Origin: a virus
Lineage: Duplodnaviria > Heunggongvirae > Uroviricota > Caudoviricetes
Strand: one strand, 5' to 3'
Virus record (IMG/VR): IMGVR_UViG_2778261375_000003
DNA length: 64,000 nucleotides
The translations under genes were made by a program, and so were the position numbers. Position 1 is the stretch's first letter; each line of letters starts with the position of its first letter. Below, in pieces: positions 8,455 to 50,640 of this stretch. The notes below the pieces were generated by a model that did no database searches, had not been told where the DNA came from, and saw only the letters and a list, made by a program, of their open reading frames with translations.

Positions 8455-8478
8455 TTGCTCGAGGCATAACGTAGAAGG

Positions 8479-9166: not shown

Positions 9167-9210
9167 TTGAAATTAATCGTGCCGGATTGTTTTGTTCGGT
9201 ATCAGTTAAA

Positions 9211-10032: not shown

Positions 10033-10038
10033 CGGACC

Positions 10039-10785
10039 ATGAAAAATATTGCGACAGGCGGCGTTCTGGAACGCATCCGCCGACTGACCCCGCCACATGT
10101 AACCGCCCCATTCAGAACGGTAGCGGAGTGGCGCGAGTGGCAACTTGCTGAAGGCCAGAAACGTTGTGAGGAGATCAACCGTCAGAATCGTCAGTTGCGG
10201 GTGGAAAAAATTCTGAATCGTTCAGGCATCCAGCCGTTGCACCGTAAATGCTCATTTGCGAATTACCAGGTGCAGAACGACGGCCAGCGATACGCGTTAA
10301 GCCAGGCGAAATCCATCGCCGATGAACTGATGACCGGGTGTACAAATTTTGCGTTCAGCGGAAAACCTGGTACCGGGAAGAATCACTTAGCGGCAGCTAT
10401 CGGGAATCGCCTGCTGAAAGACGGTCAGACAGTGATTGTGGTTACCGTGGCTGATGTTATGAGCGCCCTGCACGCCAGCTATGACGACGGGCAGTCAGGC
10501 GAAAAATTTTTGCGGGAGCTGTGCGAAGTGGATCTGCTGGTTCTTGATGAAATTGGCATTCAGCGCGAGACGAAAAACGAGCAGGTGGTGCTGCACCAGA
10601 TTGTTGATCGCCGGACAGCGTCGATGCGCAGCGTGGGGATGCTGACAAACCTGAACTATGAGGCCATGAAAACATTGCTCGGCGAGCGGATTATGGATCG
10701 CATGACCATGAACGGCGGGCGATGGGTGAATTTTAACTGGGAGAGCTGGCGTCCGAATGTCGTCCAGCCAGGAATTGCGAAGTGA
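10039..10785 (+). CDS. ydaV: YdaV-like DnaC/IstB-type helicase loader ATPase
   Basis: 248 aa, Walker [16 protein letters not shown], Walker B LLVLDEIG. Confidence 0.85.
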
Positions 10786-10807
10786 TTTTTACCGGGAGGA
10801 AATTTTA

Positions 10808-11569
10808 ATGGAGACTGTTTTTGACGCACTGAAAGCGATGGGAAAAGCCACGTCGGTAGAGCTGGCTGCGCGACTTGATATCAGTCGTGAAGAAGTACTG
10901 AACGAGCTGTGGGAACTGAAAAAGGCTGGCTTCGTTGATAAAAGCGTATACACCTGGCGTGTGGCTGATAACAACGTTCAGCAGGAACAGCCAGCGCCAG
11001 AAGAACAGCCGGAAGAAACCACCACGGCGACAGTAGCGAAAATCTCAGAGTGCGATTTAACCGCGACGATTGAACAACGCGGACCACAAACGGCGGATGA
11101 ACTGGCTACGCTGTTCGGTACAACATCCCGCAAAGTGGCTTCAACGCTGGCAATGGCAATCAGCAAAGGTCGTCTGATTCGCGTAAATCAGGGCGGTAAA
11201 TTTCGTTACTGCATACCGGGCGATAATTTACCAGCAGAGCCGAAAGCTGCATCGGTAGCGGAAACTGATGGTAAAGCCTTTCCTCAGCCTGCATGTGTTG
11301 CGTTACCAGTACAGGAGGCTGCAACACAGGAAGATATTAAAACAGAAACTGTGGCGGACATTGTGCAGTCGCTGCCATCGTTCACCGAAACGCGAGCGGA
11401 TGACCTGATTTTACCATCGCTGCATATGGCAAACCGCGAACTGCGTCGGGCGAAAAGTCATGTCCAGAAGTGGGCGCGAGTCTGCGCCGCGCTGCGGGAG
11501 CTGAACAAGCACCGGGATATTGTTCGACAGATTACTGATTCTTCCCGACGTGTTGTATCGGAAAAGTGA
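10808..11569 (+). CDS. Hypothetical phage protein (YdaW position)
   Basis: Start set at ATG 10808 behind gggagg RBS; acidic/proline-rich linker; no recognised motif. Confidence 0.5.
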
Positions 11570-11584
11570 TTGCCGGAGGCACTT

Positions 11585-12007
11585 ATGGCAAAAGTATTTA
11601 CACAAGAAGAGCGGGAAAAAATTAAAGGGCAGGTTGTTGAGCTAGTACGCCGGAGTGGGCGCGAGACGTTACGGCAACTGGAAGCCAAGACAGGTGCGAC
11701 AAGATATCTGATGAGCGTTCTCGCCAGAGAGCTTGTTGCCAGTGGCGATGTATACAACTCTGGTTACGGGTTATTTCCGTCTGAACAGGCCCGTAAGGAC
11801 TGGCAAAACGCCCGCAAAAAACTATCCAGGGCAAAGGTGAAAAAAACGGTTGTGGTTGATCCTGACCTTATCTGGTCATTACCAGACGGAGAAATACGCC
11901 GCTACGACAGGCGTCTGAACATAATCTGTCGCGAGTGCCGGAAGAGCGAAGCTATGCAGCGTGTACTGGCTTTCTATCAGGGTAATTTTCAGGAGGCGGT
12001 ACTGTGA
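11585..12007 (+). CDS. Hypothetical phage protein
   Basis: ATG 11585 behind ggagg RBS; 140 aa. Confidence 0.5.
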   Translation: MAKVFTQEEREKIKGQVVELVRRSGRETLRQLEAKTGATRYLMSVLARELVASGDVYNSGYGLFPSEQARKDWQNARKKLSRAKVKKTVVVDPDLIWSLPDGEIRRYDRRLNIICRECRKSEAMQRVLAFYQGNFQEAVL

Positions 12008-12064
12008 GTGAAATTAGCTATCAGGCTTCAATTGCCGCTGGCATTCGCATCAAAGGAGAGGAGC

Positions 12065-12421
12065 ATGGAAATAAAACCAGAAGATGAGTTAAGTAATATT
12101 GTTTTATTTCCGGTAAAAGAGGATGACCCACGTAATCAGGTTAATTTTCTTTATGAGCCATCGGAAAGACCATATTGTCATCACGCCTCTGTCCGGGTTG
12201 ACGAAAAAGAGCGTCAGGTCCGCTGTAAAATCTGCGGTGCAGTTGTGGAGCCATTTGACTGGATGCTCTCTGTGGCGAAAAGAGAAACCAGACTGGCAGA
12301 TGATGTAAGGCTATTGCGTCAGGAGGAACAGGAAAGGCGAAAAAATATAGAAAAGCTAATTCAGATTGAGCGTAACGCGAAAGCGCGGATAAGCAGGGTG
12401 ACAAAATCAAGAACTGAATAA
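12065..12421 (+). CDS. Hypothetical protein with C/H zinc-ribbon-like motif
   Basis: ATG 12065 behind aaaggagaggagc RBS; CHH...CKICG motif. Confidence 0.5.
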   Translation: MEIKPEDELSNIVLFPVKEDDPRNQVNFLYEPSERPYCHHASVRVDEKERQVRCKICGAVVEPFDWMLSVAKRETRLADDVRLLRQEEQERRKNIEKLIQIERNAKARISRVTKSRTE

Positions 12422-12514
12422 TTTAAATTTAGCACTGTTAAAAATTTAATCCTTAACCGGAGGGATTTCTGCACCCTCAGAACATCAGGAGTCCGCCCGA
12501 AAGGGCGGTAAGAA

Positions 12515-12733
12515 ATGACTACATTATTCAGAAAAGAATATCCGCGAAGAAGTAGAACGACAGAATTTTTGTTTCTCATTCTGTTTATCGTGTTGATGAC
12601 ACCGATATCCCCGCTAATTTTTGTCTGGGCAATCGGGAAAATAATTGAGCCAGTTATTGAATTGTATAACGACGTGGTATGGGCGTCGTTCAACACACTG
12701 CACAATAAAATTAATCCGTATAAGGAAAGCTGA
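12515..12733 (+). CDS. Small hydrophobic membrane protein
   Basis: 72 aa with one long hydrophobic helix (FLFLILFIVLMTPISPLIFVWAIG). Confidence 0.4.
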   Translation: MTTLFRKEYPRRSRTTEFLFLILFIVLMTPISPLIFVWAIGKIIEPVIELYNDVVWASFNTLHNKINPYKES

Positions 12734-12734
12734 T

Positions 12735-13166
12735 ATGACCACTATTACCACTATTACCAGAGAAAACGCGGAGATTAAATCATTCATCACTGGTTTCCTG
12801 AGCGACCCGGCGCACGATAACCAATCTTCAGACAGCCTGCTTGCCAATGTGTTTCGTATCGCGCTGGCTTCGCTGGAAGCAGAACCAGTTGCATGGACTG
12901 ATGATGAGGAACTGCGTGATGTCAAGCAGTATGGTCTCGGTGAGATATTTCAGTGCCCGCCAGATAAATACGCAGACTCGCGTCGTGTAATTCCGCTGTA
13001 TCGTGTGCCGCCAGCTTCCATGGTGCAGGCACAGGGCATAGAGATTGCAATAAACGAACTGGTGGCTCTGTCCCCACGCTTGGATAAACAGGCGGTGGAA
13101 ACTCTTTCTATGGCTGTGGAACATTTACGCAAACTGGTTAAGAAGCAGTTGCAGACTAAGGACTAA
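12735..13166 (+). CDS. Hypothetical phage protein, paralogue A
   Basis: ATG 12735 behind aaggaaag RBS; begins MTTIT and contains RIALASLEAEPVA, both shared with next gene. Confidence 0.55.
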   Translation: MTTITTITRENAEIKSFITGFLSDPAHDNQSSDSLLANVFRIALASLEAEPVAWTDDEELRDVKQYGLGEIFQCPPDKYADSRRVIPLYRVPPASMVQAQGIEIAINELVALSPRLDKQAVETLSMAVEHLRKLVKKQLQTKD

Positions 13167-13169
13167 CCC

Positions 13170-13865
13170 ATGACCACTATTACCAAAGAACGTATTGAAT
13201 TGTTCATTAAAAATCCGCTTGAAAACGGGCTTGCTCGTAGCGAACAAATGGAAGTGGCACGGATCGCTTTGGCATCGCTGGAAGCAGAGCCGGTGGCATA
13301 TCAGTATCGCCAGTGGGATGCAGAATATGATGAATGGGGAGAATGGGAAGATTGCGGGGAATGTGCTTTCGAAAGATTCGTTGAGGAAGAGAAATGCCAG
13401 GGGGCAGGTGTTCAGACCCGTAAGCTTTACACCGCCCCTCCAGTGCCGGTAGTGCCAGAGGAAATCAGCATGGCTTCAAAGTTGCCTCTCATGAGTGACC
13501 AGTTGATGTTAGTAGGTTATGTGAAGGGGTGGAACGCCTGCCGCGCAGCCATGCTTCAGTCCGGAAACTTTCGGGAAATCTCGGAAACGTCAACCAACTC
13601 TCCGATAACTCTGACTCCTTTGCCTGGTGGTTTCACCATTGAGGATGCGAAGGAGTTACATGAAGACCTGGTACGCAGCCACATAAGCCAGGCTTTAAGT
13701 GGCGAGAAGATGAAAAAGAAAGATCGTGATGCTGATTTGCTCTGGATTCATGGCGTTATAGTACAGGCAGCGTGGTTTGTGAAAGCCTCACTGGATGCGT
13801 TGCCTGAACCGCTGCGGGAGGAGAAGGGAGGAAGTCCAACTGAAGAAAGTGAAGCCGGACTGTAA
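13170..13865 (+). CDS. Hypothetical phage protein, paralogue B
   Basis: 231 aa; shares MTTIT N-terminus and ARIALASLEAEPVA block with previous gene. Confidence 0.55.
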   Translation: MTTITKERIELFIKNPLENGLARSEQMEVARIALASLEAEPVAYQYRQWDAEYDEWGEWEDCGECAFERFVEEEKCQGAGVQTRKLYTAPPVPVVPEEISMASKLPLMSDQLMLVGYVKGWNACRAAMLQSGNFREISETSTNSPITLTPLPGGFTIEDAKELHEDLVRSHISQALSGEKMKKKDRDADLLWIHGVIVQAAWFVKASLDALPEPLREEKGGSPTEESEAGL

Positions 13866-13931
13866 ATTACCGAGTAAGGCGATGGACTACCTGAAGCGAA
13901 ACGGGCTGACAAGCGTGGAGGATATTTTACG

Positions 13932-14015
13932 ATGACCTGGCCTGAGGCATTCACCACGGTAGGAATTGCAATGGCGGTGGCGCTGGTGGTGTATTCGATT
14001 TGCCGCTGGGGATAA
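13932..14015 (+). CDS. Possible 27-aa hydrophobic peptide
   Basis: Hand-found ORF MTWPEAFTTVGIAMAVALVVYSICRWG; below ORF-track cutoff; speculative. Confidence 0.25.
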   Translation: MTWPEAFTTVGIAMAVALVVYSICRWG

Positions 14016-14203
14016 AAACGGTTTGCGGGAAAAGGAGAGTTAAGTAGAATTGCAGCGGGTGCTTGAGGCTATCTGCCTCGGGCATGAACACCAACGGCAG
14101 ATAGATAAAAGCCCCACCCGACTATAAATCGAAGTGAGGCCCCTATATGCTCGTCACATATAGATTGCCTCTTACGGACCGAAAGGTCAAGGAGAAGCAG
14201 GCT

Positions 14204-14359
14204 ATGAAGCAGCAAAAGGCGATGTTAGTCGCCCTGATCGTCATCTGTTTAACCGTCATAGTGACGGCACTGGTAACGAGGAAAGACCTCTGCGAGGTAC
14301 GAATCCGAACCGGCCAGACGGAGGTCGCTGTCTTCGTAGACTACGAACCTGAGGAGTAA
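14204..14359 (+). CDS. hok: Hok/Gef-family type I toxin
   Basis: 51 aa MKQQKAMLVALIVICLTVIVTALVTRKDLCEVRIRTGQTEVAVFVDYEPEE, near-identical to recalled HokD/RelF; in-frame upstream ATG at 14147 could act as a mok-like leader. Confidence 0.9.
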   Translation: MKQQKAMLVALIVICLTVIVTALVTRKDLCEVRIRTGQTEVAVFVDYEPEE

Positions 14360-14427
14360 GAGACCCGGCGGGGGAGAAATCCCTCGCCACCTCTGATGTG
14401 TCAGGCATCCTCAACGCACCCGCACTT

Positions 14428-14450
14428 ACCCCGCTTCGGCGGGTTTTTTG
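14428..14450 (+). terminator. Rho-independent terminator of hok transcript
   Basis: ccccgcttcggcggg hairpin followed by tttttt. Confidence 0.7.
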
Positions 14451-14637
14451 TTGTTTATTTTCGGTGAGCATGATGCATCTGGTTGTACTGATGTGGCTGG
14501 CTGATTCTGTTATTCAGGTGGCTTATTGCTGTTGATTGGTATGTCTTCACGGCTAGAATCGAGGCTCTTAAGTAGCGCGCAGGGAGAAGAGGGATGGACC
14601 CCGAAGGGGAAGAGCTATTTATCTGGAAGGATTCTGA

Positions 14638-14813
14638 AGATGAAAATCGAAGAATTGCGTGAAATTTTTAGTGAAAATGGCCTCTATGCTGTGCGCGTTG
14701 AGAATGGGAAAGTTGTCTACACAACGTTAATCCCTGATGATCATGTAATTTTATCTATCGAGGCATTCATTGAATACCTTGAAAGGCTCGGTTTCAAGGT
14801 GGTTCGCGAATGA
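14638..14813 (+). CDS. Hypothetical small protein
   Basis: 58-aa ORF from MKIEELREIF; start chosen at internal ATG. Confidence 0.4.
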
Positions 14814-14872
14814 GTTATAATTCGTAAGCCAGCCTGAACAACTGGCAACCTACAGCGCCATTGGAGGCAGCA

Positions 14873-15472
14873 ATGGCGCATATACAACTGGTCAAACAAA
14901 CCTCTTCCGGATTACTTCTCCCGGCGACGCCGGAGAGTTGTGATTTTCTGCATCAAATCAAAATAGGTGAGTGGATACACGCAGACTTTAAGCGTGTGCG
15001 TAACTACGCGTTCCACAAGCGTTTTTTCAAACTCCTGCAACTGGGATTCGATTACTGGACTCCGAACGGTGGGGCGATCACGCCTCGCGAACGAGAACTG
15101 GTGTCCGGTTTCGTTGAGTATCTGTGCGAATCAGTTGGTCGGGAACACACTCCAGCCCTGAGCGAAGCCGCAGAGCAATATCTGAATGCCGTTGCGACAC
15201 GCAGAACCCGGGATACGGCATTGCTAAAGTCGTTTGACGCTTTCCGCGAGTGGGTAACCATTCAGGCCGGATTTTACACCGAGCATATTTATCCTGATGG
15301 TAGTCGTGGGCGCAGGGCAAAATCTATCGCATTTGCGAATATGGACGAAACCGAGTTTCAGCAGGTTTATAAATCTGTACTGAATGTGCTGTGGAACTGG
15401 ATCCTGTTCCGTAAATTTTCCTCTCCGGAGGAAGTCGAAAATGTGGCCGCACAGTTACTGGAGTTTGCGTAA
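14873..15472 (+). CDS. Nin-region protein, DUF1367-like
   Basis: ATG 14873 behind ggagg RBS; recalled as the family paired with DUF1364 upstream of Q in lambdoid prophages. Confidence 0.5.
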   Translation: MAHIQLVKQTSSGLLLPATPESCDFLHQIKIGEWIHADFKRVRNYAFHKRFFKLLQLGFDYWTPNGGAITPRERELVSGFVEYLCESVGREHTPALSEAAEQYLNAVATRRTRDTALLKSFDAFREWVTIQAGFYTEHIYPDGSRGRRAKSIAFANMDETEFQQVYKSVLNVLWNWILFRKFSSPEEVENVAAQLLEFA

Positions 15473-15762
15473 TGGTGGATTTACGTAAAGCGGCGCGGGG
15501 GCAGATGTGCACCGTCAGAATTCCTGGCTACTGCAATCACAATCCCGAAACTTCTGTGCTGGCGCATTACAGGCTGGCGGGGACGTGCGGAACAGCGACA
15601 AAACCACACGATATGCAGGCAGCGATTGCCTGTAGCTCATGCCACGATCTAATCGACGGGCGGGTAAAAACCAGCGATTACACCAAAGAAGAATTACGCC
15701 TGATGCATGCAGAAGGTGTTTTTCGCACACAAGAAATCTGGAGAAAGGAAGGTTATTTATGA
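15472..15762 (+). CDS. DUF1364 protein, YbcO-like
   Basis: MVDLRKAARGQMCTVRIPGYCNHNPETSVLAHYRL...CSSCHD resembles recalled YbcO; ATGG start overlaps previous stop. Confidence 0.7.
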   Translation: MVDLRKAARGQMCTVRIPGYCNHNPETSVLAHYRLAGTCGTATKPHDMQAAIACSSCHDLIDGRVKTSDYTKEELRLMHAEGVFRTQEIWRKEGYL

Positions 15763-16313
15763 TTTACCCAACAAATACAGGCAAAAGCGGGGAACACCTT
15801 CGTCTCACCACGCTGGAAAGTGTCTGGATTCAGGGAAAACTGCGCATGTGGGGGCGCTGGTCGTATATTGGCGGCGGTAAGACGGGAAATATGTTCAACC
15901 AGTTGCTGACCTCTAAAAAGCTGACAAAAACGGCAATTAACGAGGCGCTCCGGAGGATGAAAAAAGCAGGTCTGGACAAACCTGAACTTGAGGCTTTTTT
16001 GCGGGATATGATCAACGGCAAGCAAAAAAGCTGGCTGGTGCATTGTACTGATGCAGAGGCGTTATGCATTGATCGGGTGATTAGTGAAGTGCTGGCAGAA
16101 CACCCAGGATTGATTTGTATCCTCCGGCAACGATATGAAGGGAGGGGGATGACTAAGCGAAAAATGGCTGAGTTGCTGAATGATTCACACCCTGAGTGGT
16201 GTTACGCCACGTGCCGTAATCGCATAGATGCGTGGTTGAAAATGGCAGAGTTTATGCTCTATCTGCCGATGCGTGATGCATTCTCTTCCGGGGATCTAAA
16301 AACCGTCTGTTGA
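15759..16313 (+). CDS. Late-gene antiterminator, Q21-like
   Basis: 184 aa; blocks LRMWGRWSYIGG / CTDAEALCIDRVI / RIDAWLKMAEFMLYL parallel recalled phage-21-type Q; followed by promoter plus short terminated leader. Confidence 0.6.
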   Translation: MIYPTNTGKSGEHLRLTTLESVWIQGKLRMWGRWSYIGGGKTGNMFNQLLTSKKLTKTAINEALRRMKKAGLDKPELEAFLRDMINGKQKSWLVHCTDAEALCIDRVISEVLAEHPGLICILRQRYEGRGMTKRKMAELLNDSHPEWCYATCRNRIDAWLKMAEFMLYLPMRDAFSSGDLKTVC

Positions 16314-16339
16314 CTCAATCTGTTATCCGGGGCTATATT
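16310..16339 (+). promoter_or_regulatory. Candidate late promoter pR'
   Basis: TTGACT (16310-16315), 18-bp spacer, TATATT (16334-16339), overlapping the Q stop codon. Confidence 0.4.
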
Positions 16340-16400
16340 CCTCACGCGCCAGCAAAATCTGGCGTCGGGATTGGCGTCCTGGATAGAGACCGCGACAGAT

Positions 16401-16422
16401 ACACGCCGCGAGCGTGTTTTTT
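16401..16422 (+). terminator. Candidate tR' terminator of a short pR' leader RNA
   Basis: acacgccgcgagcgtgt hairpin plus tttttt, about 75 nt downstream of the predicted pR' start. Confidence 0.5.
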
Positions 16423-16583
16423 ATTGTCGTATGCACGCGCACATCTGAATTATGGTGGGCTGTGTGGGGGCGGAGAGATCCGCGCCGGTCGGTTTCCCGG
16501 TTACGCCAACCCTGCACAGTTCACCACCAGATGATTGGCGTCGTCGGTGGTGAGTTATTAAGAAACCACCAGAGGGCGTCATT

Positions 16584-17195
16584 ATGACAACTCAAATTTC
16601 TGTTGAAACTCTCTCCCCGATCACCCATAACCAGATTCCTGTTATTACCACCGAACTTTTGGCGCAGCTTTACGGCACTGAGCCGGTGCGCATTCGCCAG
16701 AATCATCATGAGAACAAAGTACGCTTCGTTGAAGGGAAACACTTTTTCAAAGTTGTTGGTAATGACCTTAAAGAATTGCGGGTAGCTTTAAACTACTCAC
16801 AAAATTTGCGGGTTACTTTAAGTAACTCACAAAATTTGCAACCATCTTTAAGAGGGTTACAAATTTCCCCGAAAGCCCGCTCCCTCATCCTCTGGACAGA
16901 ACGCGGAGCAGCCCGTCATGCCAAAATGCTCGAAACCGATCAGGCGTGGGATGTGTTCGAAAAGCTGGAAGACTGCTATTTCAGACAAAAGGATCCGTCA
17001 GCGCCAGCTTCATGCCAGAAAAGTTACGACACGCGAGTTCTCTGTTATCAGCGAGGCGGTGTCACTGTTTCCACAATTCAGTTGCGGGATGATGATATTG
17101 TTATTTCCCTTGAGTCATGGCTGGAACTGGCGAGAGCCAATGGTTGGTTTGTTGTTCGCAGAGATAAACTGGTGGAAAGGCTGATGCAGCTTTAA
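16584..17195 (+). CDS. ORF6N-domain protein (antirepressor-like), with internal 30-bp tandem repeat
   Basis: N-terminus PVITTELLAQLYGTEPVRIRQNHHENKVRFVEGKHFFKV fits remembered ORF6N pattern; 30-bp unit repeated about 2.5 times at 16776-16865. Confidence 0.55.
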   Translation: MTTQISVETLSPITHNQIPVITTELLAQLYGTEPVRIRQNHHENKVRFVEGKHFFKVVGNDLKELRVALNYSQNLRVTLSNSQNLQPSLRGLQISPKARSLILWTERGAARHAKMLETDQAWDVFEKLEDCYFRQKDPSAPASCQKSYDTRVLCYQRGGVTVSTIQLRDDDIVISLESWLELARANGWFVVRRDKLVERLMQL

Positions 17196-17290
17196 AAAAG
17201 TTCTTGCAATTTTAGCCATAAACTGCTTCAATTCCGTTACGCTTCGCAAAGCTGTATCGCGAGGCGAACCAAGCGCATGAACTTTACCAG

Positions 17291-17316
17291 AACCCGCCAT
17301 TGAGCGGGTTTTGTTG
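17291..17316 (+). terminator. Rho-independent terminator after ORF6N gene
   Basis: aacccgccattgagcgggtttt hairpin plus T-rich tract. Confidence 0.6.
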
Positions 17317-17332
17317 TTTCTGGAGAACACCC

Positions 17333-17605
17333 ATGAAATTTTATGAATTATCTTCTGAGTCCCGATCTCAGGCCAAAATCACACTGGGTCAGTTGATTGT
17401 GGCTCGGGCTAACACCGGGATGGATGATTTTGAAAATTTGGGGCATTGCATCGCTGCCGCGTTTATTGCGATGGAGCGCCATGAAAGCGCCCCTGAGGTT
17501 GGTGAGGGGCGTAGCGGGAACGGAATACCCGTTAATGGCGATCAAAAACTAGCATCCAACGTCGTGAACGTGATGATTCACTATCCGTGTGACTCTATAG
17601 CGTGA
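17333..17605 (+). CDS. Hypothetical cargo protein
   Basis: 90 aa from MKFYELSSESR; ggagaa RBS; no family recognised. Confidence 0.45.
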   Translation: MKFYELSSESRSQAKITLGQLIVARANTGMDDFENLGHCIAAAFIAMERHESAPEVGEGRSGNGIPVNGDQKLASNVVNVMIHYPCDSIA

Positions 17606-37826: not shown

Positions 37827-38179
37827 TGCGATACAGACGTGAAGACGCCGATGGCGATTACACCTTTGGCAGCGGTGATGACACCTGGCTGATTAACTCA
37901 CCGGAGGCCGTGGCGCAGGCGGTAAAAACGCGATTCGAATTGTGGTATGGGCAATGGTTTCTCGACACCACCGAGGGGACTCCGTGGATCCAGTCCGTAC
38001 TCGGTAAGCAGAAGCCGGAAACCTACAACCTAGCGATCAGAAAACGCATTCTGGAAACGCAGGGCGTTAAATCAATCCTCTCTTTCAATACGACGGTGGA
38101 TACCACGACCCGACGTGTCATGTTTTCCGCTGAAATCGACACTCTCTATGGAATAACGACTGTTACATCGGAGGCGTAA
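37823..38179 (+). CDS. Baseplate protein (gpW-like)
   Basis: 118 aa, ATGA-coupled between spike and J-like gene. Confidence 0.55.
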   Translation: MMRYRREDADGDYTFGSGDDTWLINSPEAVAQAVKTRFELWYGQWFLDTTEGTPWIQSVLGKQKPETYNLAIRKRILETQGVKSILSFNTTVDTTTRRVMFSAEIDTLYGITTVTSEA

Positions 38180-39378
38180 TGGCTCTGAACCTTGATTCTC
38201 TCGGTTTATCTGCAAAGGTAACCGCGGAGGGGATCAGTGCGCCTGATTATCAGACGATACTCAGCACCCTGATTAGCTATTTTCAGCAGATTTATGGCAG
38301 TGATGCCTACCTCGAACCGGACAGCAAAGACGGCCAGATGGTGGCTCTGATGGCGCTGGCGATTCATGATGCCAATAATATGGCGATAACTGTCTACAAC
38401 TGTTTTTCACCGGCAACCGGCTATGGGGCTGCACTGACCAGTAACGTGAAAATAAATGGTATTTCACGTAAAGGCGCGACGAATTCTACGGTTGATTTGC
38501 TTCTTACAGGAACTGCCGGGGCAACCATCATTAATGGCAGCGTGAAAGACAGTAATAATGTGATATGGCGTTTGCCTGCTTCAGTGGTGGTCGGCGTGGA
38601 TGGTACAGTGATGGTGACCGCAACATGTTCCGTCAGTGGTGCAGTGGCGGCGCTGGCTGGAACTATCACTGAAATTAATACGCCAACCCGTGGCTGGATT
38701 TCGGTAACCAATCCTGCTGCAGCTACTGTAGGCACTCCAGCAGAAACTGATGCTGAGTTACGTATCCGCCAGTCGCAAAGTGTTGCGTTGCCATCAATAA
38801 CCCCATTTGAAGCACTGGATGGTGCTGTTTCTAATGTTGCCGGTGTAACCCGCCACAAACTCTATGAAAACGATACTGGTTCGGAGGACGGTAACGGGTT
38901 ACCGCCACACTCTGTTGCTGTAATTGTGGATGGTGGTGATGTGACGGATATTGCTCAGGCTATCAGAGGGAATAAAGGCCAGGGGACAGCCACTCACGGT
39001 ACAACATCCGTTACGGTTCTGGATAAATACGGCAATCCCCATGTAATCAAATTCTCGCGTTCCAGTGATGTACCTGTTTATGCCCGGATTAAATTAAAAG
39101 TTTTTACGGGTTATACCTCACAGATAGGGCAGCAGATCCAGCAGGCTATTTCCGACTATATCAATAGTCTGATGATTGGTGATTCGGTCCTTTTAAGTCG
39201 CATTTACTCACCGGCGAATCTTGGCGTGGTGAGTGGCGGGAATGCACGCTATTACGATATTCAGGAACTGACGATTGGGAAATCCCCGGGGGCTTTGTCG
39301 TCATCAAACATTGATATCAGATACAACGAATCTGCGTCCTGTACCCCGGAAAATATCGTTATAACGGTGGAGTCATGA
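38179..39378 (+). CDS. Baseplate J-like protein
   Basis: 399 aa in canonical position. Confidence 0.6.
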   Translation: MALNLDSLGLSAKVTAEGISAPDYQTILSTLISYFQQIYGSDAYLEPDSKDGQMVALMALAIHDANNMAITVYNCFSPATGYGAALTSNVKINGISRKGATNSTVDLLLTGTAGATIINGSVKDSNNVIWRLPASVVVGVDGTVMVTATCSVSGAVAALAGTITEINTPTRGWISVTNPAAATVGTPAETDAELRIRQSQSVALPSITPFEALDGAVSNVAGVTRHKLYENDTGSEDGNGLPPHSVAVIVDGGDVTDIAQAIRGNKGQGTATHGTTSVTVLDKYGNPHVIKFSRSSDVPVYARIKLKVFTGYTSQIGQQIQQAISDYINSLMIGDSVLLSRIYSPANLGVVSGGNARYYDIQELTIGKSPGALSSSNIDIRYNESASCTPENIVITVES

Positions 39379-40055
39379 GCAAATACACCGAACTAATCAC
39401 AAACTACCACGCCACCAAACCTAAATTTCTTGCACATGTTGATCTGATGACCCGGCCGCTTATTGATGTTGCGGCTGCCACCAGAGGGCTGATTACTGCA
39501 TTTGATATTGACTCTGCGGTTGGTGTGCAACTTGACATTCTGGGATTGTGGATCGGACGTAGCCGTGTTGTCAGCCAGCCTATCTCAGGTGTCTATTTCA
39601 GCTGGGATACCGACGGGCTTGGATATGATCAGGGGGTATGGCAGGGACCATACGATCCTGATTCCGGATACATGTACCTCAGCGATGAAACTTATCGTGT
39701 CATTCTTAAAGCGAAGATTGCGATTAATAACTGGGACGGACGGAATGATTCGCTTCCGGCAATTCTTGACGCTGCAACAGCAGGATCCGGGCTGCGAATG
39801 CAGATAGTCGATAACCAGGACATGACGATATCGGTCTGGGTCTTTCCTGATACTGATATTTCAGATGTATCGCGTGAGTTAATTGCGGCAATTAAACAGG
39901 GGTATCTCACAGTAAAAGTCGCCGGGGTATGGGCGGGTGGCATTGAAACACCTTCGGTGGAAACCCCATCGGAAGGCTCAAAATTTTTTGGTTTTGATAT
40001 GGATAACGAATTCATCAGTGGTTTTGATGTAGGAGCATGGGGAGTATTACTCTGA
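39375..40055 (+). CDS. Baseplate protein (gpI-like)
   Basis: 226 aa between J-like gene and tail fiber. Confidence 0.5.
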
Positions 40056-40828
40056 TGGCGAAAAATGACTTTAAAGCGTTTGCAACGGATCGAAATGCCA
40101 ATGTTATATCGCAGGAGGAATGGGAAGCGTTGCCCGCGCTTTTATCCGGATTTACAGCAGGGAAAGCCTCCAGTGCGCAAGTCAATAAGGTTATTCGGCA
40201 GGCCAGCTTTATTGCTGCAGCTCTGGCCCAGTTTGTAAGTGATAAAACGCAACGGGATGTGCTTGATAATGGTGATCTGCCCGGTTTTGTTGAATTGCTG
40301 GGATCGGGGTTTGCTGTTGAATACCTGAGCCGCAAGAATCCGTTTGGTGATATCAAATCGGATGGCACGGTGAAAACGGCTCTCGAAAACCTTGGTTTGG
40401 GAGAAGGTTCGGCATTACCCGTTGGTGTGCCTGTCCCGTGGCCTTCCGCCACTCCGCCAACAGGCTGGCTAAAATGCAATGGTGCGGCTTTTTCTGCTGA
40501 AGAATACCCGGAACTGGCAAAGGTTTATCCGACAAATAAATTGCCTGATTTACGCGGTGAATTTATTCGTGGATGGGATGATGGGCGTGGGGTGGATTCC
40601 TCTCGTGGTTTGTTGACATCTCAAGACCATTTATTTGCTTCTCATGGGCACTGGTTTGACAAGTACTATGCGCTAACAGGTTTTGATACAACGGGAGGTC
40701 GGTTCGTAGTTACGGCTGATGCTTTCGGGGAACTTATTAAGGCAAATTCAATTTCTACGGTATCGGTTGGTGGTTCTGAAACCCGGCCGCGCAACGTCGC
40801 ATTTAACTATATCGTGAGGGCAGCCTGA
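40055..40828 (+). CDS. Tail fiber protein (short, Stf-like C-terminus)
   Basis: C-terminus ...[10 protein letters not shown]...[12 protein letters not shown]...[11 protein letters not shown] parallels recalled lambda Stf C-terminus; ATGA overlap with previous gene. Confidence 0.7.
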
Positions 40829-41430
40829 TGAATAAAGCCGTATTAAATAACGAACTCATTGCCATAAAAGCGGGAGACATTACCATTTATAATTATGATG
40901 GTGAAACGCGGGAATATATTTCCACATCAACTGAATATCTTGCGGTTGGCGTCGGTATACCGGCATGCTCCTGTTTAGATGCTCCTGACTCATATAAAGC
41001 TGGTTATGCAATCTGCCGTTCTGCAGATTTTAACTCATGGGTATATGTGCCAGACCACCGTGGTGAAACGGTATATAGCACTGAAACAGGAGAATCAAAA
41101 GAAATCACAGCTCCGGGTGATTACCCTGAAAATACAACCACTATCGCCCCGTTAACGCCATTCGATAAATGGGATGGTGAGAAATGGGTGACCGATACTG
41201 AGGCACAGCATTGCGCCGCAGTAGACGCGGCAGAAGCACAGCGTCAGTCACTGATTGATACTGCAATGGCTTCCATCAGTCTGATTCAACTGAAATTGCA
41301 GGCCGGGCGGAAGCTGACGCAGGCAGAAACCACCCGACTTAACGCTGTGCTGGATTACATTGACGCGGTGACGGCAACAGATACCAGCACCGCGCCGGAT
41401 GTCATCTGGCCTGAACTGCCGGAGGCGTAG
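40828..41430 (+). CDS. Tail fiber assembly protein (Tfa)
   Basis: 200 aa after fiber gene; C-terminal ...LDYIDAVTATDTSTAPDVIWPELPEA. Confidence 0.75.
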   Translation: MNKAVLNNELIAIKAGDITIYNYDGETREYISTSTEYLAVGVGIPACSCLDAPDSYKAGYAICRSADFNSWVYVPDHRGETVYSTETGESKEITAPGDYPENTTTIAPLTPFDKWDGEKWVTDTEAQHCAAVDAAEAQRQSLIDTAMASISLIQLKLQAGRKLTQAETTRLNAVLDYIDAVTATDTSTAPDVIWPELPEA

Positions 41431-41842
41431 GCCATTCAATATCTGGCGCACCGGAAGTATCGACCAGTTCCAGTGCGTCCAGGTAATCCAGCCACAAATT
41501 ATATTGCGCCAGTTCGTCACCTTTCAGACGACCAATAGCCGCTTTACCAGGCCATTGTTTACTGTTCATATAATCGTTGGCCTGATTAATCAATTGCTGC
41601 TTCTCCAATTCGGCTGCAGCAATTTGTTCCTCATGTGTTGGTGGTGGAATTTCGGACCATGCAGGAAAACCATTTTCTCCAGCGATACGGATTTTTCCTT
41701 TCGGCGGTAATCCGGAAAACTCAATATACACTTGCTCATCAACTTCAACAGCATCATCTGGCCATGAGTCAGCTTGAGTGTAATCCTCTTTCATCCCCAG
41801 CGGATAGAAAGAGTTTGTAGTCGCGGAATATATGTAATTCAT
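41402..41842 (-). CDS. Tail fiber assembly protein (Tfa), second copy, convergent
   Basis: 146 aa; C-terminal ...LDYLDALELVDTSGAPDIEWPTPP; 3' end overlaps the plus-strand tfa by 29 bp. Confidence 0.75.
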   Translation of the reverse strand: MNYIYSATTNSFYPLGMKEDYTQADSWPDDAVEVDEQVYIEFSGLPPKGKIRIAGENGFPAWSEIPPPTHEEQIAAAELEKQQLINQANDYMNSKQWPGKAAIGRLKGDELAQYNLWLDYLDALELVDTSGAPDIEWPTPPAVQAR

Positions 41843-41863
41843 TTTTCACTCCATATAGCTAAA

Positions 41864-43798
41864 TTAACAGCCTAACGCTAAAAATGAAGCGCCGAGGCCA
41901 GGAGTACTGGCTCTGGATATAAATTTAACCGGGTCGGGACTAAAACCTGCACAGGCAATATAACCAACAGCCCCGCTATCTGGTGTGTAGTCTTGTGAGA
42001 CCAAAACACGCAGACATCTGTTTGGAAATGCAATCGGGAAATGGGTTACTACATCCTGTGCAATGCCTGGTGCGCCGATTGAGCCCCACTGAAGAATAAA
42101 ACCTGATGGTAATTTTTGATATCCAGTACCTGAAACAGAAAGCGTGAAGCTACCCATATCAGGTATCTGATTCGCCCCTGTCCCTACATTCCTTTTAGCC
42201 GCTTCTCCCAAACCAAGGTATTGGATAACGGCCAGTGTGCTTGTTTTAGCCAGAATATCGCGACCGACTGACGTTAAATCAGTCTGAGCTACCGTATCCT
42301 TACCAGTGAAATAAGGCAGTTTGTTTGCACCAGTCGCAAGGGCAGCGAGAGCGGTTAAAGTTGCATCCAGAGGCTGTTTGCCTGCCAGCGCATTTGTCAT
42401 TGTTGTCGCAAAGTTCGGGTCATTGCCAAGTGCTGCGGCAAGCTCATTCAGGGTATCAAGAGCTTCTGGTGATGAACCAACCAATGCGGATATGGCAGCT
42501 CTTACATAAGCGGTCGTAGCAATCTGCGTGTTATTCGTACCCTGTGCAGCGGTAGGCGCAGTAGGGACACCCGTTAATGCAGGGCTTGCCAAAGGCGCTT
42601 TGAGAGCCAAGGCATTGTTGATAGTTGTGCTGTAATTCGGGTCGTTATTGATCGCAGCAGCTATTTCTTTAAGCGTATCCAGTGTGCCAGGCGCACCGTT
42701 GATAAGTGCAGTTATAGCTGCCTTAACAAAGGCTGTATTTGCGATCTGCGTGTTATTCGTACCCTGTGCAGCGGTAGGCGCAGTAGGTATTCCCGTTAAT
42801 GCAGGACTTGCTAAAGGAGCTTTAAGAGCCAGAGCATTGTTGATAGTTGTGCTGAAATTCGGGTCGTTATTGATCGCAGCAGCTATTTCTTTAAGCGTAT
42901 CCAGTGTGCCAGGTGCACCGTTGATAAGTGCCGTTATAGCTGCCTTAACAAAGGCTGTATTTGCGATCTGCGTGCTATTTGTACCTTGCGCTGCCGTCGG
43001 CGCGGTTGGCGTTCCTGTCAGACTCGGGCTTTCTATTGGCGCTTTGGTATCAGCCAGATCTTTTATAGACTTAACAGCTTTAGGGGTAGCCGCCATTGTT
43101 TCGCTGTCGCTGTTAGTTGCGCTACTGAGCTGAACTAATCCCTTTTGCGTTGTGCTTGCATCCTGTGCCGTATACTTGCTTTTCGCCAGATCGTAGGCTT
43201 TTTTAACTGCCAGCGAACTTGCAGCAACATCACTTCTGGTACTGGTTACAGAGTCTGAAATATCAATGCCGATCGAGCGGTTGATACGCTCGGATGTATC
43301 AATCATCTCCTGGGTAATGGCAGATACACTAGCAGGGATATTCACCGTACAAACAAGCAGCTCCCCATCTCCTAACTGATATGAATCGGTATAGGTTCTG
43401 GCAACAAATTCAGCCGCATGAATATGTGACGCGGTATTCACCTGGTAGGTATCTTCTCCAAGGAGGTATCTTCCCTTCAGCACAATTGCATATTTCTTGC
43501 CTGCACTAAGTGCAAGAGAAATATCCTTACGTTGCTGAATAGTTACCTGGTAAAATTCACCAATATCCACCGACGCCGCGCCTGCGGTTTTATCACCATC
43601 CACTGAGGTAATTAACAGGTTCATCCCACCGCCAGGCTTAGGTAAGAAACCGGCATAAAATCCCGGGTCAACAATCCCCCTGAATTTTCGGTTTAGCGCG
43701 GCTGACAGATATGGTTCGTGGTATTGCACATCGGCCACCAGAGCCAACGACTCGGATGATGGGTAAGTAACCGATGTAACAACTGTAACGTCATTCAT
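41864..43798 (-). CDS. Side tail fiber protein (Stf-like) with internal tandem repeats
   Basis: Start set at MNDVTVVTS; contains ...[25 protein letters not shown]... and ...[35 protein letters not shown]... blocks shared with lambda Stf / P2 H as recalled. Confidence 0.8.
42540..43030. repeat. Tandem coding repeats (about 222-bp unit) within tail fiber gene
   Basis: Near-identical DNA at 42641-42660 and 42863-42882 and surrounding; encode repeated [57 protein letters not shown] units. Confidence 0.75.
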
Positions 43799-43809: not shown

Positions 43810-44244
43810 TTATGCTGTAGTCGTGTTTATGGCCATAACTGCGGTATATGTTTTGCCCACATACAGCGAGTCTTCCTGGACACAAATAATGGCGATTGGC
43901 TTGTTCTCGTTATCCAGAACAACCAGAGTGTTGAATGGGTAGTTTTTCCCTTCCTGCAACTGGCTTTGATCAAGGTCCATTCGGACAGTAATTATCCCGC
44001 CTGAGTAGGTTGGGACGAGGTTGATGGTGCAAAATTGACTGGTCAGTTCTGCCAGTTCGAAAGCCTTTGGCAGTTCTCCAATCTCATAAGTGCCATCTCC
44101 TTTCTTAGTAACCAGCGAACTGGTACCGAAAACGGCCTTGCTGATTAAAAATCGAGAGCCTTTGTTAATGGACGATTCAGCGCGCCGCTGATAGTAATAG
44201 TCCAACAACTGACTCTTATAGAGGTTTGTTGAGACGTCAGACAT
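43810..44244 (-). CDS. Tail/baseplate-associated hypothetical protein
   Basis: 144 aa immediately upstream of minus-strand tail fiber. Confidence 0.45.
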
Positions 44245-46592: not shown

Positions 46593-46948
46593 AGCACCAC
46601 GTCCTGTGTGATAGTTATATCCCTGATACGAATGGATATTTTCAACTTATCAAAAGCATCTCCCTCGGCTACTGACAAGCCAGAAATCGGTATGTCAGGT
46701 AAATCTACCGTCAGTTTTTGCAACAGCATTGCCTCAACCGCAATTTGAACATGCGACAAGTTGGTCGGTTCGTGTTTAAACTGCGGTAAAACATTGCCCC
46801 ATGACGGATCCCCGTATACCTCACCCTGATAAGTGTTTAGCCACTCATATAAACGAGCGCCCCAGGCCTCCTCCTGGGACTCATACGTTTTTACGCCGGA
46901 TAACTCCAGCGTCAGCAAAGGATCAATTTCGTTATTGTTGGCCATCAA
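46589..46948 (-). CDS. Baseplate wedge protein (gpW/gp25-like)
   Basis: 119 aa, coupled between tape-measure-like gene and J-like gene. Confidence 0.5.
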   Translation of the reverse strand: MMANNNEIDPLLTLELSGVKTYESQEEAWGARLYEWLNTYQGEVYGDPSWGNVLPQFKHEPTNLSHVQIAVEAMLLQKLTVDLPDIPISGLSVAEGDAFDKLKISIRIRDITITQDVVL

Positions 46949-49900
46949 TCAACTCTCGCGTAGTCATTCATCAACGGATCATCAATTGACAGTGGTACCG
47001 TGCGCATAACGCCCGGCTGAGGCGTGCTGACCTTTACGACAGTTCCCTGGCCTTTCGCCGAGTCTTTGGTGTGCTCTTCAATCCTGGCAAGCAATGAGGC
47101 CATCTGCGCAAACAGCCGCTTCGTTTCACCATCAAGTGAAACGGTATTATCAGCCAACTGCATTGTCGGCTTGGCACCGGAGCCGCCAAGGTCACTAATA
47201 ACCTGTCCGTCTATCTGCATACGACCGGTTGGTTGCTGCAAATCGTTGGCGGCAGTCGTCACCTTGGACGTGGAGGCTGGTTCAGGCGCATTATTTTTCC
47301 GCATCCCCGGCGAGTTGCGGAGTTTATCGAATAGTCCATCAATCTCCATTTGTGCGCCGAGTTGGTCAAAGTAACTTGAGTTGTTGGCCACCGGACGCGC
47401 CTCTTCAACTGGCATCGGAGTATCAACATACACATTGCCAGCTGCTGTTGCGGTCCCCTTCCCTCGTGCACGTTCTTCGAGCGTTCCCTGAACGACTTCC
47501 CGACGCATACCCCGGCCATTCATGAATTTGTTGACCAGATCGTTAACGCCAACAGCATTGCCGATTTTGTCTACCAGACCGCCTTTCTCAAACGGGCTAT
47601 CACCAGGGGTAAATGCCAGGCCAGTAGACTGATCGATAACAGCGTTATCAGGCAGTGGTCCCCTCACTCCATATTGCGCCCCACCCTGTGCTCCTGCTCC
47701 AGGTGTATAGATTTCACCACCTAAATAGCGAGCACGATGAGTATTGACCTTGATCGCGTACTCACGGTTTTCTTTGGATAAGTCACCTGTGCCTTTTTTC
47801 CACTTATTGATAGTGCCAAACCCAGCGTTATATGCAGTGATGGCCTCGTTTAAGTCTCCATTGGCTTGCTTCAGATACTTGCTCATGAGAAGAGCCGCAG
47901 CTTCTGCCGATTTCACAGGATCAAACGATTCACCTTCAGCTAAGCCAGTCTCTTCACGAGCAATCCCCGTGAACTGAAACATTCCCAGAGCACCGGTTTG
48001 GGATTTTGCATACGGATTACCACCAGATTCAGTTGCAGCAATCGCGTAAAGAGTGCCTTCTGGAAGACCGTATTTATTCTCTAGTTCGGCAAAATACGGA
48101 GCCAACTTATCGAGATTTGCCTTACCTTCAGCGCCAAGACTTCCGACTTTTACATCTAAGTTGCCATTGTTGTAAGTATCCGCAGCTTTCTGAATGTCAT
48201 TCCTGGTGCCAGTAGTATTAAGCGACGATGATGATGAGCTATTTTGACCAATAGCATTATCAATTTTCTGCAACGCGCTATTGCCCGTTTCTACGGCATT
48301 TGCATTGATAATCTGATTGGCAGTTTCTTTAACTGTTTTATTGCTATCTTTCGCCGTATCTAGGGATGCATTTACAACACGAGTGACAATATTAGCCTTT
48401 TTAGGGGTATATTCAGTCTTAGGAGCATTGTCCTCCTGACTTTCTTTAGCTGGTGTTTTTAATTCAGGTGTAACCTCTTTCGCATCCGCTTTGTTGACTA
48501 GCTTTGATGCAACCCAGGCCACAGGGGTGCTCTGAACAGCGGCATCTGCAACCTCACCTGAAAGCTCTTTTGCGGCACTCCATAGATTACTGCCAGCTTC
48601 TTTAATGTATTTCCCTGGGTTCTTAATGAAATCAATTGCACTATCAATTGCATCACTGAAAACCTGTTTCAGGTTATCGACAGTAAAGAAGTTTTTGATG
48701 GCGTCTAATTTTTCGTTCAGGTTCTTTGTTGTGTCACTGAACCATGCTGAAATAGCATCACCAATCTTTGCAGTATAATCACTAAATGTCGTGGATATAG
48801 TATCACCAAGGTTAGAAATATATGTTTCTAAATTGGTAATCCCACTATCAATGGCCTGGGCAATACTTTCCGTCGAAAATGATTGCAACATATTGCCGAT
48901 ATCCTCAAATCCAAGTGATTTGAGAACGCCGCCAATGGCACTGCTAATACCAGATACCAGTCCTCCCATATCGAGAACGTTAGCCAGTGTATAAGCCGCT
49001 TTTTGCTGAAAAGATGGATCTTCCCCATCCTTAAGCCCAAAGGTCCGACGTTGTGCTTCTGTATCATTCCAACCGGTTACCGCATCATAGATACCTCCAG
49101 CCACCGTGCCGACTAGCGGAATTGCGCGTAAAGCCCCCTTTGCAAGAGCCTTAACACCTAGTTTCCCCAATCCCTTAGTTGCAAGTTTTCCGGCACCGCG
49201 AGTAGCCAATTCGCCAGCTTCTTTGGCAGCAGCTTTTTTCCCACCAAAGCCCAATAAGCTTGCAACTTTTTTTATACCTAAAGCGCCTAGTGCCATCGAG
49301 CCAACTTTCTTTAGTACCCCACGGCCAAAAATAAGGGAAGCAATACCACCGGCCCCCTTCCCTAACAGGCTAAATAGTTTGGACAGCAAGCCGCCCTTCT
49401 TTTTCCCGGTGTTTTTGGCTATCTGATCAAGGGCGCTGAGAATCTTGTCATTGCCCTCTTTAATTTCGCTGGTCTGCTCCTGAAGTTCCTGAACCGTCCG
49501 TTTTTGGGTGTTAACCTGAACGACATCGGCACTATTTTGCGATTTACGCCTAAAAAAACCTTTTCTACGGCTGTTATCGTCATTGCCACGAATCACATCG
49601 GCAATAGACTTTCTGGCACCATTAAGCGATCCACCAACTTCTTTTGATATCCCGCCAAGCTCCTTCCCTGCTGCCCACAATGGACCAGCAACGGCATAAC
49701 CTAACGCATCGACGGCACGAGTCTCTGAAGGGTTACCTATGCCTTCAGCTACTTTTGACAGTTTTTTTAATAAACCTGATTCAGCATTTAGACGCTCATC
49801 ATCCTCTTTGCGCCTGGCCTTTTCAGCACGTTCAGCACGGGCATCTTCCGCTGCGGCCTTACTCCCTGACTTTCCAATAAAACGACCACGCGCATCGCGT

Positions 49901-50640
49901 TGGTTTTGGCTTTTTTGCGCACCGCCTTTTTGATCGAACATTTTGCGAGCGTGTTCGGCTGCTTCGGTCCGTTGTGCCTTTATATCCTCTGGTATAGCCT
50001 TCCTGCGTCGTTTTTTACCCTTTGGTGTAGTTGATTTGGCCTGCTGTTCCTGTTGAGCAATGCCCTCCTGAACTACACGAGAAACGTCCCCTAAATTAAG
50101 CCGTTTCATTGCATCAACAATAGGGTCTACTGATGGCGCATTGGCCACAAAGTCTGGCCGGGAATTTTCGATTGTTCGATTTAATGCCGACACACTGCGA
50201 GATACTGGGTCAACCGTTGCAACGCGTTCCCCTTTCAAATCACGATCGAGTTTGACCGTTTCTAACCGCTGTGCTTTAACATCCTCTGTTATTGCCTCTC
50301 TTCGTCTATTTGGGGGATTGTGCGCTGTTGGTGCAGCCTGCTGTTCACGGTTAGTGACTTTGTCCTCCCGTATACGAGAAACGTCCCCTAAATTAAGCCG
50401 TTTCATTGCGTCAACAATAGAGTCCACTGATGGCGCATTGGTCACAAAGTCAGGACGTGAATTTTCGATTGTGCGATTTAATGCCGACACACTGCGAGAG
50501 ACAGGATCAACAGTTGCAACTCGTTCCCCTTTCAAATCTTCAACAGCTTCCCGAATACCTGCAAGCTCTTCCAGCTCTTTCGCGCTGGCGGTTTCAACTG
50601 TCCTTATAACATCGTCAATATTGGCGTTTTTTCTTTCCAT
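46945..50640 (-). CDS. Tape-measure-like protein with lytic transglycosylase (SLT) domain
   Basis: 1231 aa; SLT-like block ...AIAATESGGNPYAKSQTGALGMFQF...AYNAG...; Gly/Ala-rich helical stretches; two copies of an N-terminal repeat of about 55 aa. Confidence 0.6.
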   Translation of the reverse strand: MERKNANIDDVIRTVETASAKELEELAGIREAVEDLKGERVATVDPVSRSVSALNRTIENSRPDFVTNAPSVDSIVDAMKRLNLGDVSRIREDKVTNREQQAAPTAHNPPNRRREAITEDVKAQRLETVKLDRDLKGERVATVDPVSRSVSALNRTIENSRPDFVANAPSVDPIVDAMKRLNLGDVSRVVQEGIAQQEQQAKSTTPKGKKRRRKAIPEDIKAQRTEAAEHARKMFDQKGGAQKSQNQRDARGRFIGKSGSKAAAEDARAERAEKARRKEDDERLNAESGLLKKLSKVAEGIGNPSETRAVDALGYAVAGPLWAAGKELGGISKEVGGSLNGARKSIADVIRGNDDNSRRKGFFRRKSQNSADVVQVNTQKRTVQELQEQTSEIKEGNDKILSALDQIAKNTGKKKGGLLSKLFSLLGKGAGGIASLIFGRGVLKKVGSMALGALGIKKVASLLGFGGKKAAAKEAGELATRGAGKLATKGLGKLGVKALAKGALRAIPLVGTVAGGIYDAVTGWNDTEAQRRTFGLKDGEDPSFQQKAAYTLANVLDMGGLVSGISSAIGGVLKSLGFEDIGNMLQSFSTESIAQAIDSGITNLETYISNLGDTISTTFSDYTAKIGDAISAWFSDTTKNLNEKLDAIKNFFTVDNLKQVFSDAIDSAIDFIKNPGKYIKEAGSNLWSAAKELSGEVADAAVQSTPVAWVASKLVNKADAKEVTPELKTPAKESQEDNAPKTEYTPKKANIVTRVVNASLDTAKDSNKTVKETANQIINANAVETGNSALQKIDNAIGQNSSSSSSLNTTGTRNDIQKAADTYNNGNLDVKVGSLGAEGKANLDKLAPYFAELENKYGLPEGTLYAIAATESGGNPYAKSQTGALGMFQFTGIAREETGLAEGESFDPVKSAEAAALLMSKYLKQANGDLNEAITAYNAGFGTINKWKKGTGDLSKENREYAIKVNTHRARYLGGEIYTPGAGAQGGAQYGVRGPLPDNAVIDQSTGLAFTPGDSPFEKGGLVDKIGNAVGVNDLVNKFMNGRGMRREVVQGTLEERARGKGTATAAGNVYVDTPMPVEEARPVANNSSYFDQLGAQMEIDGLFDKLRNSPGMRKNNAPEPASTSKVTTAANDLQQPTGRMQIDGQVISDLGGSGAKPTMQLADNTVSLDGETKRLFAQMASLLARIEEHTKDSAKGQGTVVKVSTPQPGVMRTVPLSIDDPLMNDYARVD

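Follow-up and report, generated by a model that had tools for sequence, protein, structure and literature searches.

A tandem array of three 74-residue modules in the constant part of a P1-like tail-fibre gene

The tail-fibre locus

The DNA analysed here (hereafter referred to as the window) is a stretch of 64,000 nucleotides from IMG/VR record IMGVR_UViG_2778261375_000003. It lies within the draft contig NOEJ01000003.1 (271 kb) of strain GCA_002517405.1, the sole recorded contig that encodes the exact 644-residue tail-fibre protein described below. The features of the tail-fibre region are listed in Table 1.

Nucleotides 1–1596 of this gene, labeled S, show 95–99.9% identity to the S gene of P1-like phages (P1, P7, RCS47, SJ46, JL22 and phi456), and also match hundreds of P1-like plasmids, found in Escherichia and Salmonella, with a few in Klebsiella and Shigella. 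The genes upstream follow the P1 order (sit-pmgA-bplA-16-R-S), and the region 42226–64000 of the window is collinear with P1 coordinates 36491–57906. Gene order, collinearity and the similarity of S itself together identify the gene as the tail fibre of a P1-like myovirus. A preliminary description of this DNA, made from the sequence alone, had labeled it a side tail fibre, and this label is not borne out, as the gene is S of a P1-like myovirus, within the P1 baseplate/fibre operon. A lambda-type side tail fibre (Stf) was considered, and rejected from the gene context, since S is not part of a lambdoid siphovirus tail cluster downstream of J; the only use of the label "stf" was in phage JL22, where this P1-like gene had been annotated automatically.

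The S protein consists of a P1-type constant part (Sc, residues 1–532), fused at a cix crossover site to a short gp53-like variable part. Two Pfam domains are identified, Phage_fiber_2 (PF03406) at residues 215–254, which is the best of two matched stretches and the one with a located position, and Gp53-like_C (PF21882). The former falls in the region of the repeated elements a0 and a1 of P1, annotated at 1615–1650 and 1651–1782 of GenBank entry M81956.

Table 1. Features of the tail-fibre region. Positions are those of the window; the repeat units b are given in the direction of translation.
Feature	Position	Strand	Protein	Remarks
Non-P1 prophage fibre gene	40037..40828	+		Constant part of ~115 aa, cix, collar-domain variable part; Pfam Collar
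Second cix-type site, in the non-P1 fibre gene	40383..40406	.	ENLGLGEG	Core search and inverted repeat
Second tail-fibre assembly chaperone (tfaE-like)	40828..41430	+		Opposite orientation in the segment; Caudo_TAP; tfaE in CS6L
Tail-fibre assembly chaperone cognate to the fused variable part	41402..41842	-		Pfam Caudo_TAP, E = 8.5e-37
Tail-fibre gene S	41864..43798	-	644 aa	ORF; ATG at 43798 is the P1 S start
Variable part fused to Sc (gp53-like C-terminal domain)	41864..42201	-	PF21882 at aa 562-644	
cix-type site, end of Sc	42202..42225	.	IQYLGLGE	Core AAACCAAGGTAT; matches P1 cixR in sequence
b unit 3 (u3)	42598-42377	-	aa 401-474	b2 type, 91.0% identical to P1 b2
b unit 2 (u2)	42820-42599	-	aa 327-400	Extra unit, b2/b1 mosaic, from difference maps and site painting
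b unit 1 (u1)	43042-42821	-	aa 253-326	b1 type, 95.9% identical to P1 b1
a0/a1 repeated elements of Sc (Phage_fiber_2 motif)	43043..43210	-		Directly upstream of the b units; transferred from M81956
Gene R (fibre attachment/assembly)	43810..44244	-		Directly upstream of S; Pfam Phage_P1_tail_fiber_R; M81956 R protein

A 222-bp repeat array in the constant part

Run on the whole window, Tandem Repeats Finder identifies a single strong tandem array in the 64 kb, at positions 42522–43003 (period 222, 2.2 copies, 92% matches, no indels, score 831). A gap-free repeat finder returns the pair 42485–42706 and 42707–42928, at 89%, and self-matching of the translated gene S finds identical 6-mers 74 residues apart 67 times, and 148 residues apart 6 times. 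The array is far above chance expectation. When placed in the register of the P1 annotation (M81956), it corresponds to three units of 222 bp (74 residues) each, labeled u1 to u3, arranged head-to-tail and in frame inside the long minus-strand ORF.

The DNA identity is 86.9% between u1 and u2, 69.4% between u2 and u3, and 62.2% between u1 and u3. At the protein level, u2 and u3 are respectively 92% and 69% identical to u1, and 50 of the 74 columns are invariant. The tandem coding repeats announced in the preliminary description are confirmed by these three in-frame units, and the span it had given (42400–43070) is off by some 25 nucleotides at most at each end. It was also right in describing two near-identical units followed by a diverged third, with the precision that u1 and u2, at 87% in DNA, are only moderately near-identical.

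Correspondence to the P1 b elements

GenBank entry M81956, which covers the P1 R gene and Sc, annotates two repeated elements of 222 bp each, b1 (1783–2004) and b2 (2005–2226); the P1 genome itself is entry AF234172. As judged by sequence comparison, the units of the window are these P1 "b" elements, and have been annotated before in that entry. They are found in the same gene, at the same place between a1 and cixR, with the same 222-bp/74-residue unit and the same frame, and both u1 and u3 have a close counterpart in P1 (Table 1). The main difference is in their number, with three units in the window and two (b1 and b2) in P1, the added middle unit being a hybrid with the 5′ part of b2 and the 3′ part of b1. 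P1 aligns to the 1596-nt Sc query over 1374 bp, exactly 222 bp less, from which two units follow for P1 and three for the window. This is an allelic difference, and not a ground for excluding the window units from the P1 b elements. A further difference is that the variable part following cix is a short gp53-like domain in the window, not the Sv of P1.

In M81956 the feature labeled "cixR crossover site" has the same coordinates as b2 (2005–2226). A cix-like sequence is present at about 2378–2403 of this entry, for which reason the feature looks misplaced, and its coordinates look like an annotation slip.

Copy number of the unit in relatives

The preliminary description had proposed to compare the copy number across strains, and had considered that an invariant number would speak against variation. 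Invariance is not what is found: intact S ORFs with one, two, three or four units are present among relatives, with two units the commonest. One unit is found in the E. fergusonii plasmid NZ_CP099340.1, two units are found in P1, P7, RCS47, SJ46 and D6, and three units in the viable phage phi456, the plasmid pB1W1-p1, the APEC17 chromosome and an E. albertii plasmid; four units are found in JNRM01000036.1 and in a D6-like S gene. The allele lengths differ by multiples of 222 bp, and the reading frame is therefore always kept.

Copy numbers read from the row-level spans of a similarity search that merges overlapping pieces, in samples of 30–60 records, illustrate how these alleles are distributed: 17 of 18 phage records covering Sc have two units and the other one (phi456) has three, while an evenly spaced sample of 564 plasmid records yielded 32 full-length rows, 29 of them with two units, two with one and one with three, four units being absent from both sets. 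The same plasmid sample includes rows that match the repeat region only and have a different N-terminal domain; a few of these have two units, several have three and one has four, with no one-unit row. In complete E. coli genomes, the top nine matches are three-unit, and the next rows two-unit. The 120 best protein clusters, a list biased towards the query, comprise 76 with two units, 37 with three and three with four, as well as four with discordant motif counts.

Phage phi456 was propagated on E. coli MC1061, from which it follows that the three-unit fibre works. Despite its name, the constant part of the P1 fibre varies in length, and versions with one to four of the 74-residue modules are in circulation among plasmids and phages of Escherichia. 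This series bears on how P1-like phage-plasmids are annotated and compared, and on how far short-read assemblies of S can be trusted.

Two of the three-unit relatives show further features of their own. In phi456 (8460–9572), S (818 residues) is followed by two small ORFs and lydA, with no chaperone or invertase gene annotated, suggesting a possible loss of the greater part of its invertible segment. In APEC17, a P1-like element occupies positions 1–17596 of the chromosomal sequence, and combines the three-unit Sc with a normal invertible segment and with a recombinase gene; as this chromosome is closed, chromosomal P1-like prophages do exist.

The 74-residue module and its probable role

Searches with the b units gave no significant match in Pfam and no match in NCBIfam. 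Phage_fiber_2, identified in the same protein, is likewise a short repeat of the rod that differs in copy number from one relative to another, but its best stretch lies in the a-element region, whereas the b units start at residue 253. Each of at least 37 PHROG families gives three matches to the units, and most of these families are annotated as tail or tail fibre. A profile of the unit matched 43,649 protein clusters at E ≤ 1e-3, and 1,900 at E ≤ 1e-30, out of 1.84 billion representatives, with up to 23 matched stretches in one protein. The best 149 proteins possess between 0 and 11 full units each, with a spacing of 74 residues far more common than any other. Many of the profile matches span only the first ∼40 positions, from which it follows that the unit is itself composed of two sub-motifs.

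A sequence search of the PDB returned half-units only, with the collar fibre 9d93 matching the second half and the tail fibre 9k09 the first half. In FibU of 80alpha, the residues matching the unit are unresolved in its structure, and a single-sequence AlphaFold2 model of residues 201–532 had a pLDDT of 40. The module is present in tens of thousands of protein clusters, and yet is without a Pfam or NCBIfam model, or a solved structure for the whole unit.

The units are located between the N-terminal P1-specific domain, which presumably attaches to the baseplate with R, and the cix site that opens the exchangeable receptor-binding end. Each module would add one fixed segment to a trimeric rod, leading from the baseplate-proximal domain to the receptor-binding tip, and the number of modules would set the length of the fibre, and not its receptor specificity. 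I infer the location in the rod and the effect on length from the position in the gene and the family annotation, which suggest that the units are rod segments, and their number the determinant of rod length. The term "shaft segments" used in the preliminary description stands in so far as the units are coding, in frame, and placed in what would be the rod part of a tail fibre; the placement itself comes from position and family. A longer or shorter fibre may possibly affect adsorption. The number of modules would constitute a natural and tolerated change in rod length, of relevance to the engineering of P1 fibres as delivery vehicles.

The adenovirus fibre is also trimeric, with a rod whose variable number of repeats sets its length, and a separate receptor-binding knob. 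The likeness is that of an attachment fibre with a variable-repeat rod, and the analogy is one of principle only, as adenovirus is a eukaryotic virus, and its shaft is unrelated in sequence and in fold (15-residue beta-spiral repeats).

The invertible segment and host range

Downstream of the repeats, at ∼150 bp, is the cix site at the end of Sc. Together with the second site in the non-P1 fibre gene it forms a 24-nt inverted repeat, 92% complementary, that contains the core of the Cin/Gin/Pin crossover sites. These sites delimit a 1.8-kb segment (40383–42225) with two variable fibre ends in opposite orientation, each with its own chaperone. The variable part fused to Sc shows a 95–97% match to the invertible segments of chromosomal prophages. 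Inverted cix-type sites, variable ends and chaperones are likewise found in the Cin, Gin, Pin and Min segments of P1, Mu, e14 and p15B. Unlike in those systems, the segment in the window is without an adjoining invertase gene, and its flanks are the fibre constant parts of two phages. In the C segment of P1, cin adjoins the far cix, whereas on the far side in the window there are plus-strand genes of another prophage, for the fibre, the wedge and baseplate J. In pB1W1-p1 and APEC17, a recombinase gene is present beyond the far cix.

The preliminary description had suggested that the repeats could drive variation in host range. A rival reading is that they are themselves a host-range device, their number or sequence altering which bacteria are recognised. 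By analogy with the adenovirus shaft, the reach of the fibre could conceivably matter with the depth of the O-antigen or capsule. The highly variable regions listed for P1-like phage-plasmids also include that of S, as the hypervariable region cin-Sv'-U'-U-S, with no mention of the number of Sc repeats (PMC9603915). However, the units are part of the constant Sc, and host range in this family is switched by the invertible segment downstream, in which variable part and chaperone are exchanged at cix (PMC13172314). At least four unrelated variable parts are found attached to one and the same three-unit Sc, indicating that the repeat number and the host-range module vary independently, and the protein sequences of the units are highly conserved. 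With a constant part, a conserved protein and varied ends, nothing in the sequences points to receptor binding by the units. The suggestion of host-range variation through the repeats is not supported, and I consider a direct role of the units in recognition to be unlikely.

Origin of the extra unit

As seen from difference maps and site painting, u2 is a mosaic, b2-like over nucleotides 1–68 and b1-like over nucleotides 78–222. Compared to u3, it has only 6 differences in nucleotides 1–77, but 62 in nucleotides 78–222; compared to u1, it has 23 differences in nucleotides 1–68, and only 6 in nucleotides 69–222. A hybrid with the 5′ part of b2 and the 3′ part of b1, located between b1 and b2, is the product expected from a misaligned exchange, and the mosaic structure of u2 is the signature of such an event.

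The reciprocal hybrid also exists. The E. fergusonii plasmid NZ_CP099340.1 has an intact S frame with a single b1-5′::b2-3′ unit, which is b1-like to approximately nucleotide 40 and b2-like from approximately nucleotide 80. In the four-unit allele of the E. coli contig JNRM01000036.1, units 1, 3 and 4 have the same DNA sequence as u1, u2 and u3 of the window, while unit 2 is identical to u2 over nucleotides 1–129 and to u1 over nucleotides 188–222, a composition that points to a very recent unequal exchange within a 58-nt identity tract. The S lineage with a D6-like N-terminal domain, which is separate, has both three-unit and four-unit alleles, and the two middle units of its four-unit allele, which is independent of that of JNRM01000036.1, differ at 1 nucleotide.

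The extra unit would have arisen by a misaligned, in-register exchange of neighbouring units, through unequal crossing-over or replication slippage. A b2 unit would pair out of register with a b1 unit on a sister or homologous molecule, and the same process would give rise to the one-, two-, three- and four-unit alleles of related phage-plasmids. Variation in fibre length through recombination, as put forward in the preliminary description, is supported by the copy-number series and by the hybrid junction units. For the account as a whole, namely an array of b modules in a P1-like Sc that gained a unit by misaligned exchange, and in which the number of copies would set fibre length, I estimate a probability of about 0.8. 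An observation that counts against it is that, in present-day sequences, the b1/b2 identity tract at the breakpoint of u2 is only 9 nt long, which is short for a RecA-dependent exchange.

The direction of the change between two and three units is ambiguous. P1 b1 has u1-type bases up to nucleotide 68, and u2-type bases at nucleotides 111, 129, 188, 210, 211 and 219; with u2-type bases at these six sites in its 3′ half, P1 may be a deletion derivative of a three-unit allele. On such sequence grounds, P1 could equally be the ancestor or the deletion derivative.

A different explanation would be that the repeats are an old structural duplication, fixed and no longer changing in number. The identity of u3 to u1 and u2, at only 62–69% in DNA, does indicate that the split between b1 and b2 is old, and two units is by far the commonest state. 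However, alleles with one to four units are found, with hybrid junction units in sequences that are otherwise identical, and the four-unit allele differs from that of the window by an insertion alone, which makes a fixed duplication very unlikely.

It could also be argued that the third copy is an assembly artefact, that is, a mis-expanded repeat in a draft genome, as the window comes from a draft contig and short-read assemblers can miscount repeats of such size. This is hardly credible: the same three-unit allele, at 99.8–99.9% identity, is present in closed plasmids, in a closed chromosome and in the genome of the isolated phage phi456, and the middle unit has distinguishing bases of its own.

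Finally, a change in copy number by the invertase (Cin or Pin) acting on cix-like quasi-sites inside the units, to which the proximity of cix and the b2 coordinates of "cixR" in M81956 might lend themselves, can be ruled out for practical purposes, as a search for the cix core with one mismatch allowed gave four matches in the window, none of them inside the units and those near the gene only at the segment ends (40387–40398 and 42210–42221), and as the breakpoints fall in different unit-to-unit identity tracts (nucleotides 69–77, 130–187 and about 40–78), which fits a homology-driven exchange.

With misaligned exchange as the preferred origin of its extra unit, the array is an ordinary and well-explained length polymorphism of the fibre shaft, and the current understanding of these phages is not overturned by the three-unit allele.

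An apparent junction of the P1-like element with a chromosomal prophage

The left cix site has no cin gene next to it, and falls within a fibre gene that belongs to another prophage, one integrated in the chromosome. In this non-P1 prophage, the fibre gene comes after those for baseplate J and the wedge, on the plus strand, and an integrase and recET are found at the left end of the window. The gene order in its fibre region is that found in the CS6L chromosome, where the segment is followed by pinE, and then by the chromosomal gene pphA. Similarity to P1-like plasmids ends at positions 42200–42204, while similarity to the CS6L chromosomal prophage reaches position 42217. In this arrangement, two convergent fibre genes (with flanks, 38179–43798) share one cix-flanked segment. 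On the P1 side, contig NOEJ01000003.1 continues for 140 kb past the junction, a length exceeding one P1 genome. Segments of this type are common in chromosomal prophages and are found in some P1-like plasmids as well; in the closest of the P1-like plasmids with three units, the silent gp53-like end is a different one.

A 51-mer spanning the junction had no exact match in the GTDB representative genomes or in IMG/VR, and no complete E. coli genome extends across it. The join may reflect a genuine cointegrate, produced by site-specific or homologous recombination at cix or next to it, or else a misassembly through the shared segment. That the contig represents a true molecule, in which a P1-like phage-plasmid recombined at or next to cix with the Pin-type segment of a prophage, is a tentative proposal that I find rather doubtful. 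If true, each inversion would swap the receptor-binding tips between two phages at once, and this chimera at the cix site is the more unusual feature of the window, compared to the repeats.

Other repeated sequences in the window

A 161-residue ORF on the plus strand (42648–43133) overlaps the b units in antisense. It is itself repetitive, nothing speaks for its being a gene, and it has the look of a side effect of the repeated alanine-rich coding sequence. A short tandem repeat of 30 bp is present at 16776–16839 (2.1 copies, 85% matches), in the early region of the lambdoid prophage.

The number of a-type repeats varies as well. The motif KG[LIV][VT]QLS, used as a proxy for the Phage_fiber_2 repeat, occurs once in S of the window and in P1, and three times in five relatives (P0044, P0048, P0049, P0050 and P0070), all of which have two b units.

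Lastly, the gene sit (46945–50640, minus strand), which encodes a tape-measure-like protein with a transglycosylase domain, contains an in-frame direct repeat (50030–50241 and 50327–50538) of 212 nt, with 84% identity and a spacing of 297 nt. The Sit protein has 1231 residues in the window and in phi456, and 1124 residues in APEC17 and pB1W1-p1, revealing that sit is also polymorphic in length.
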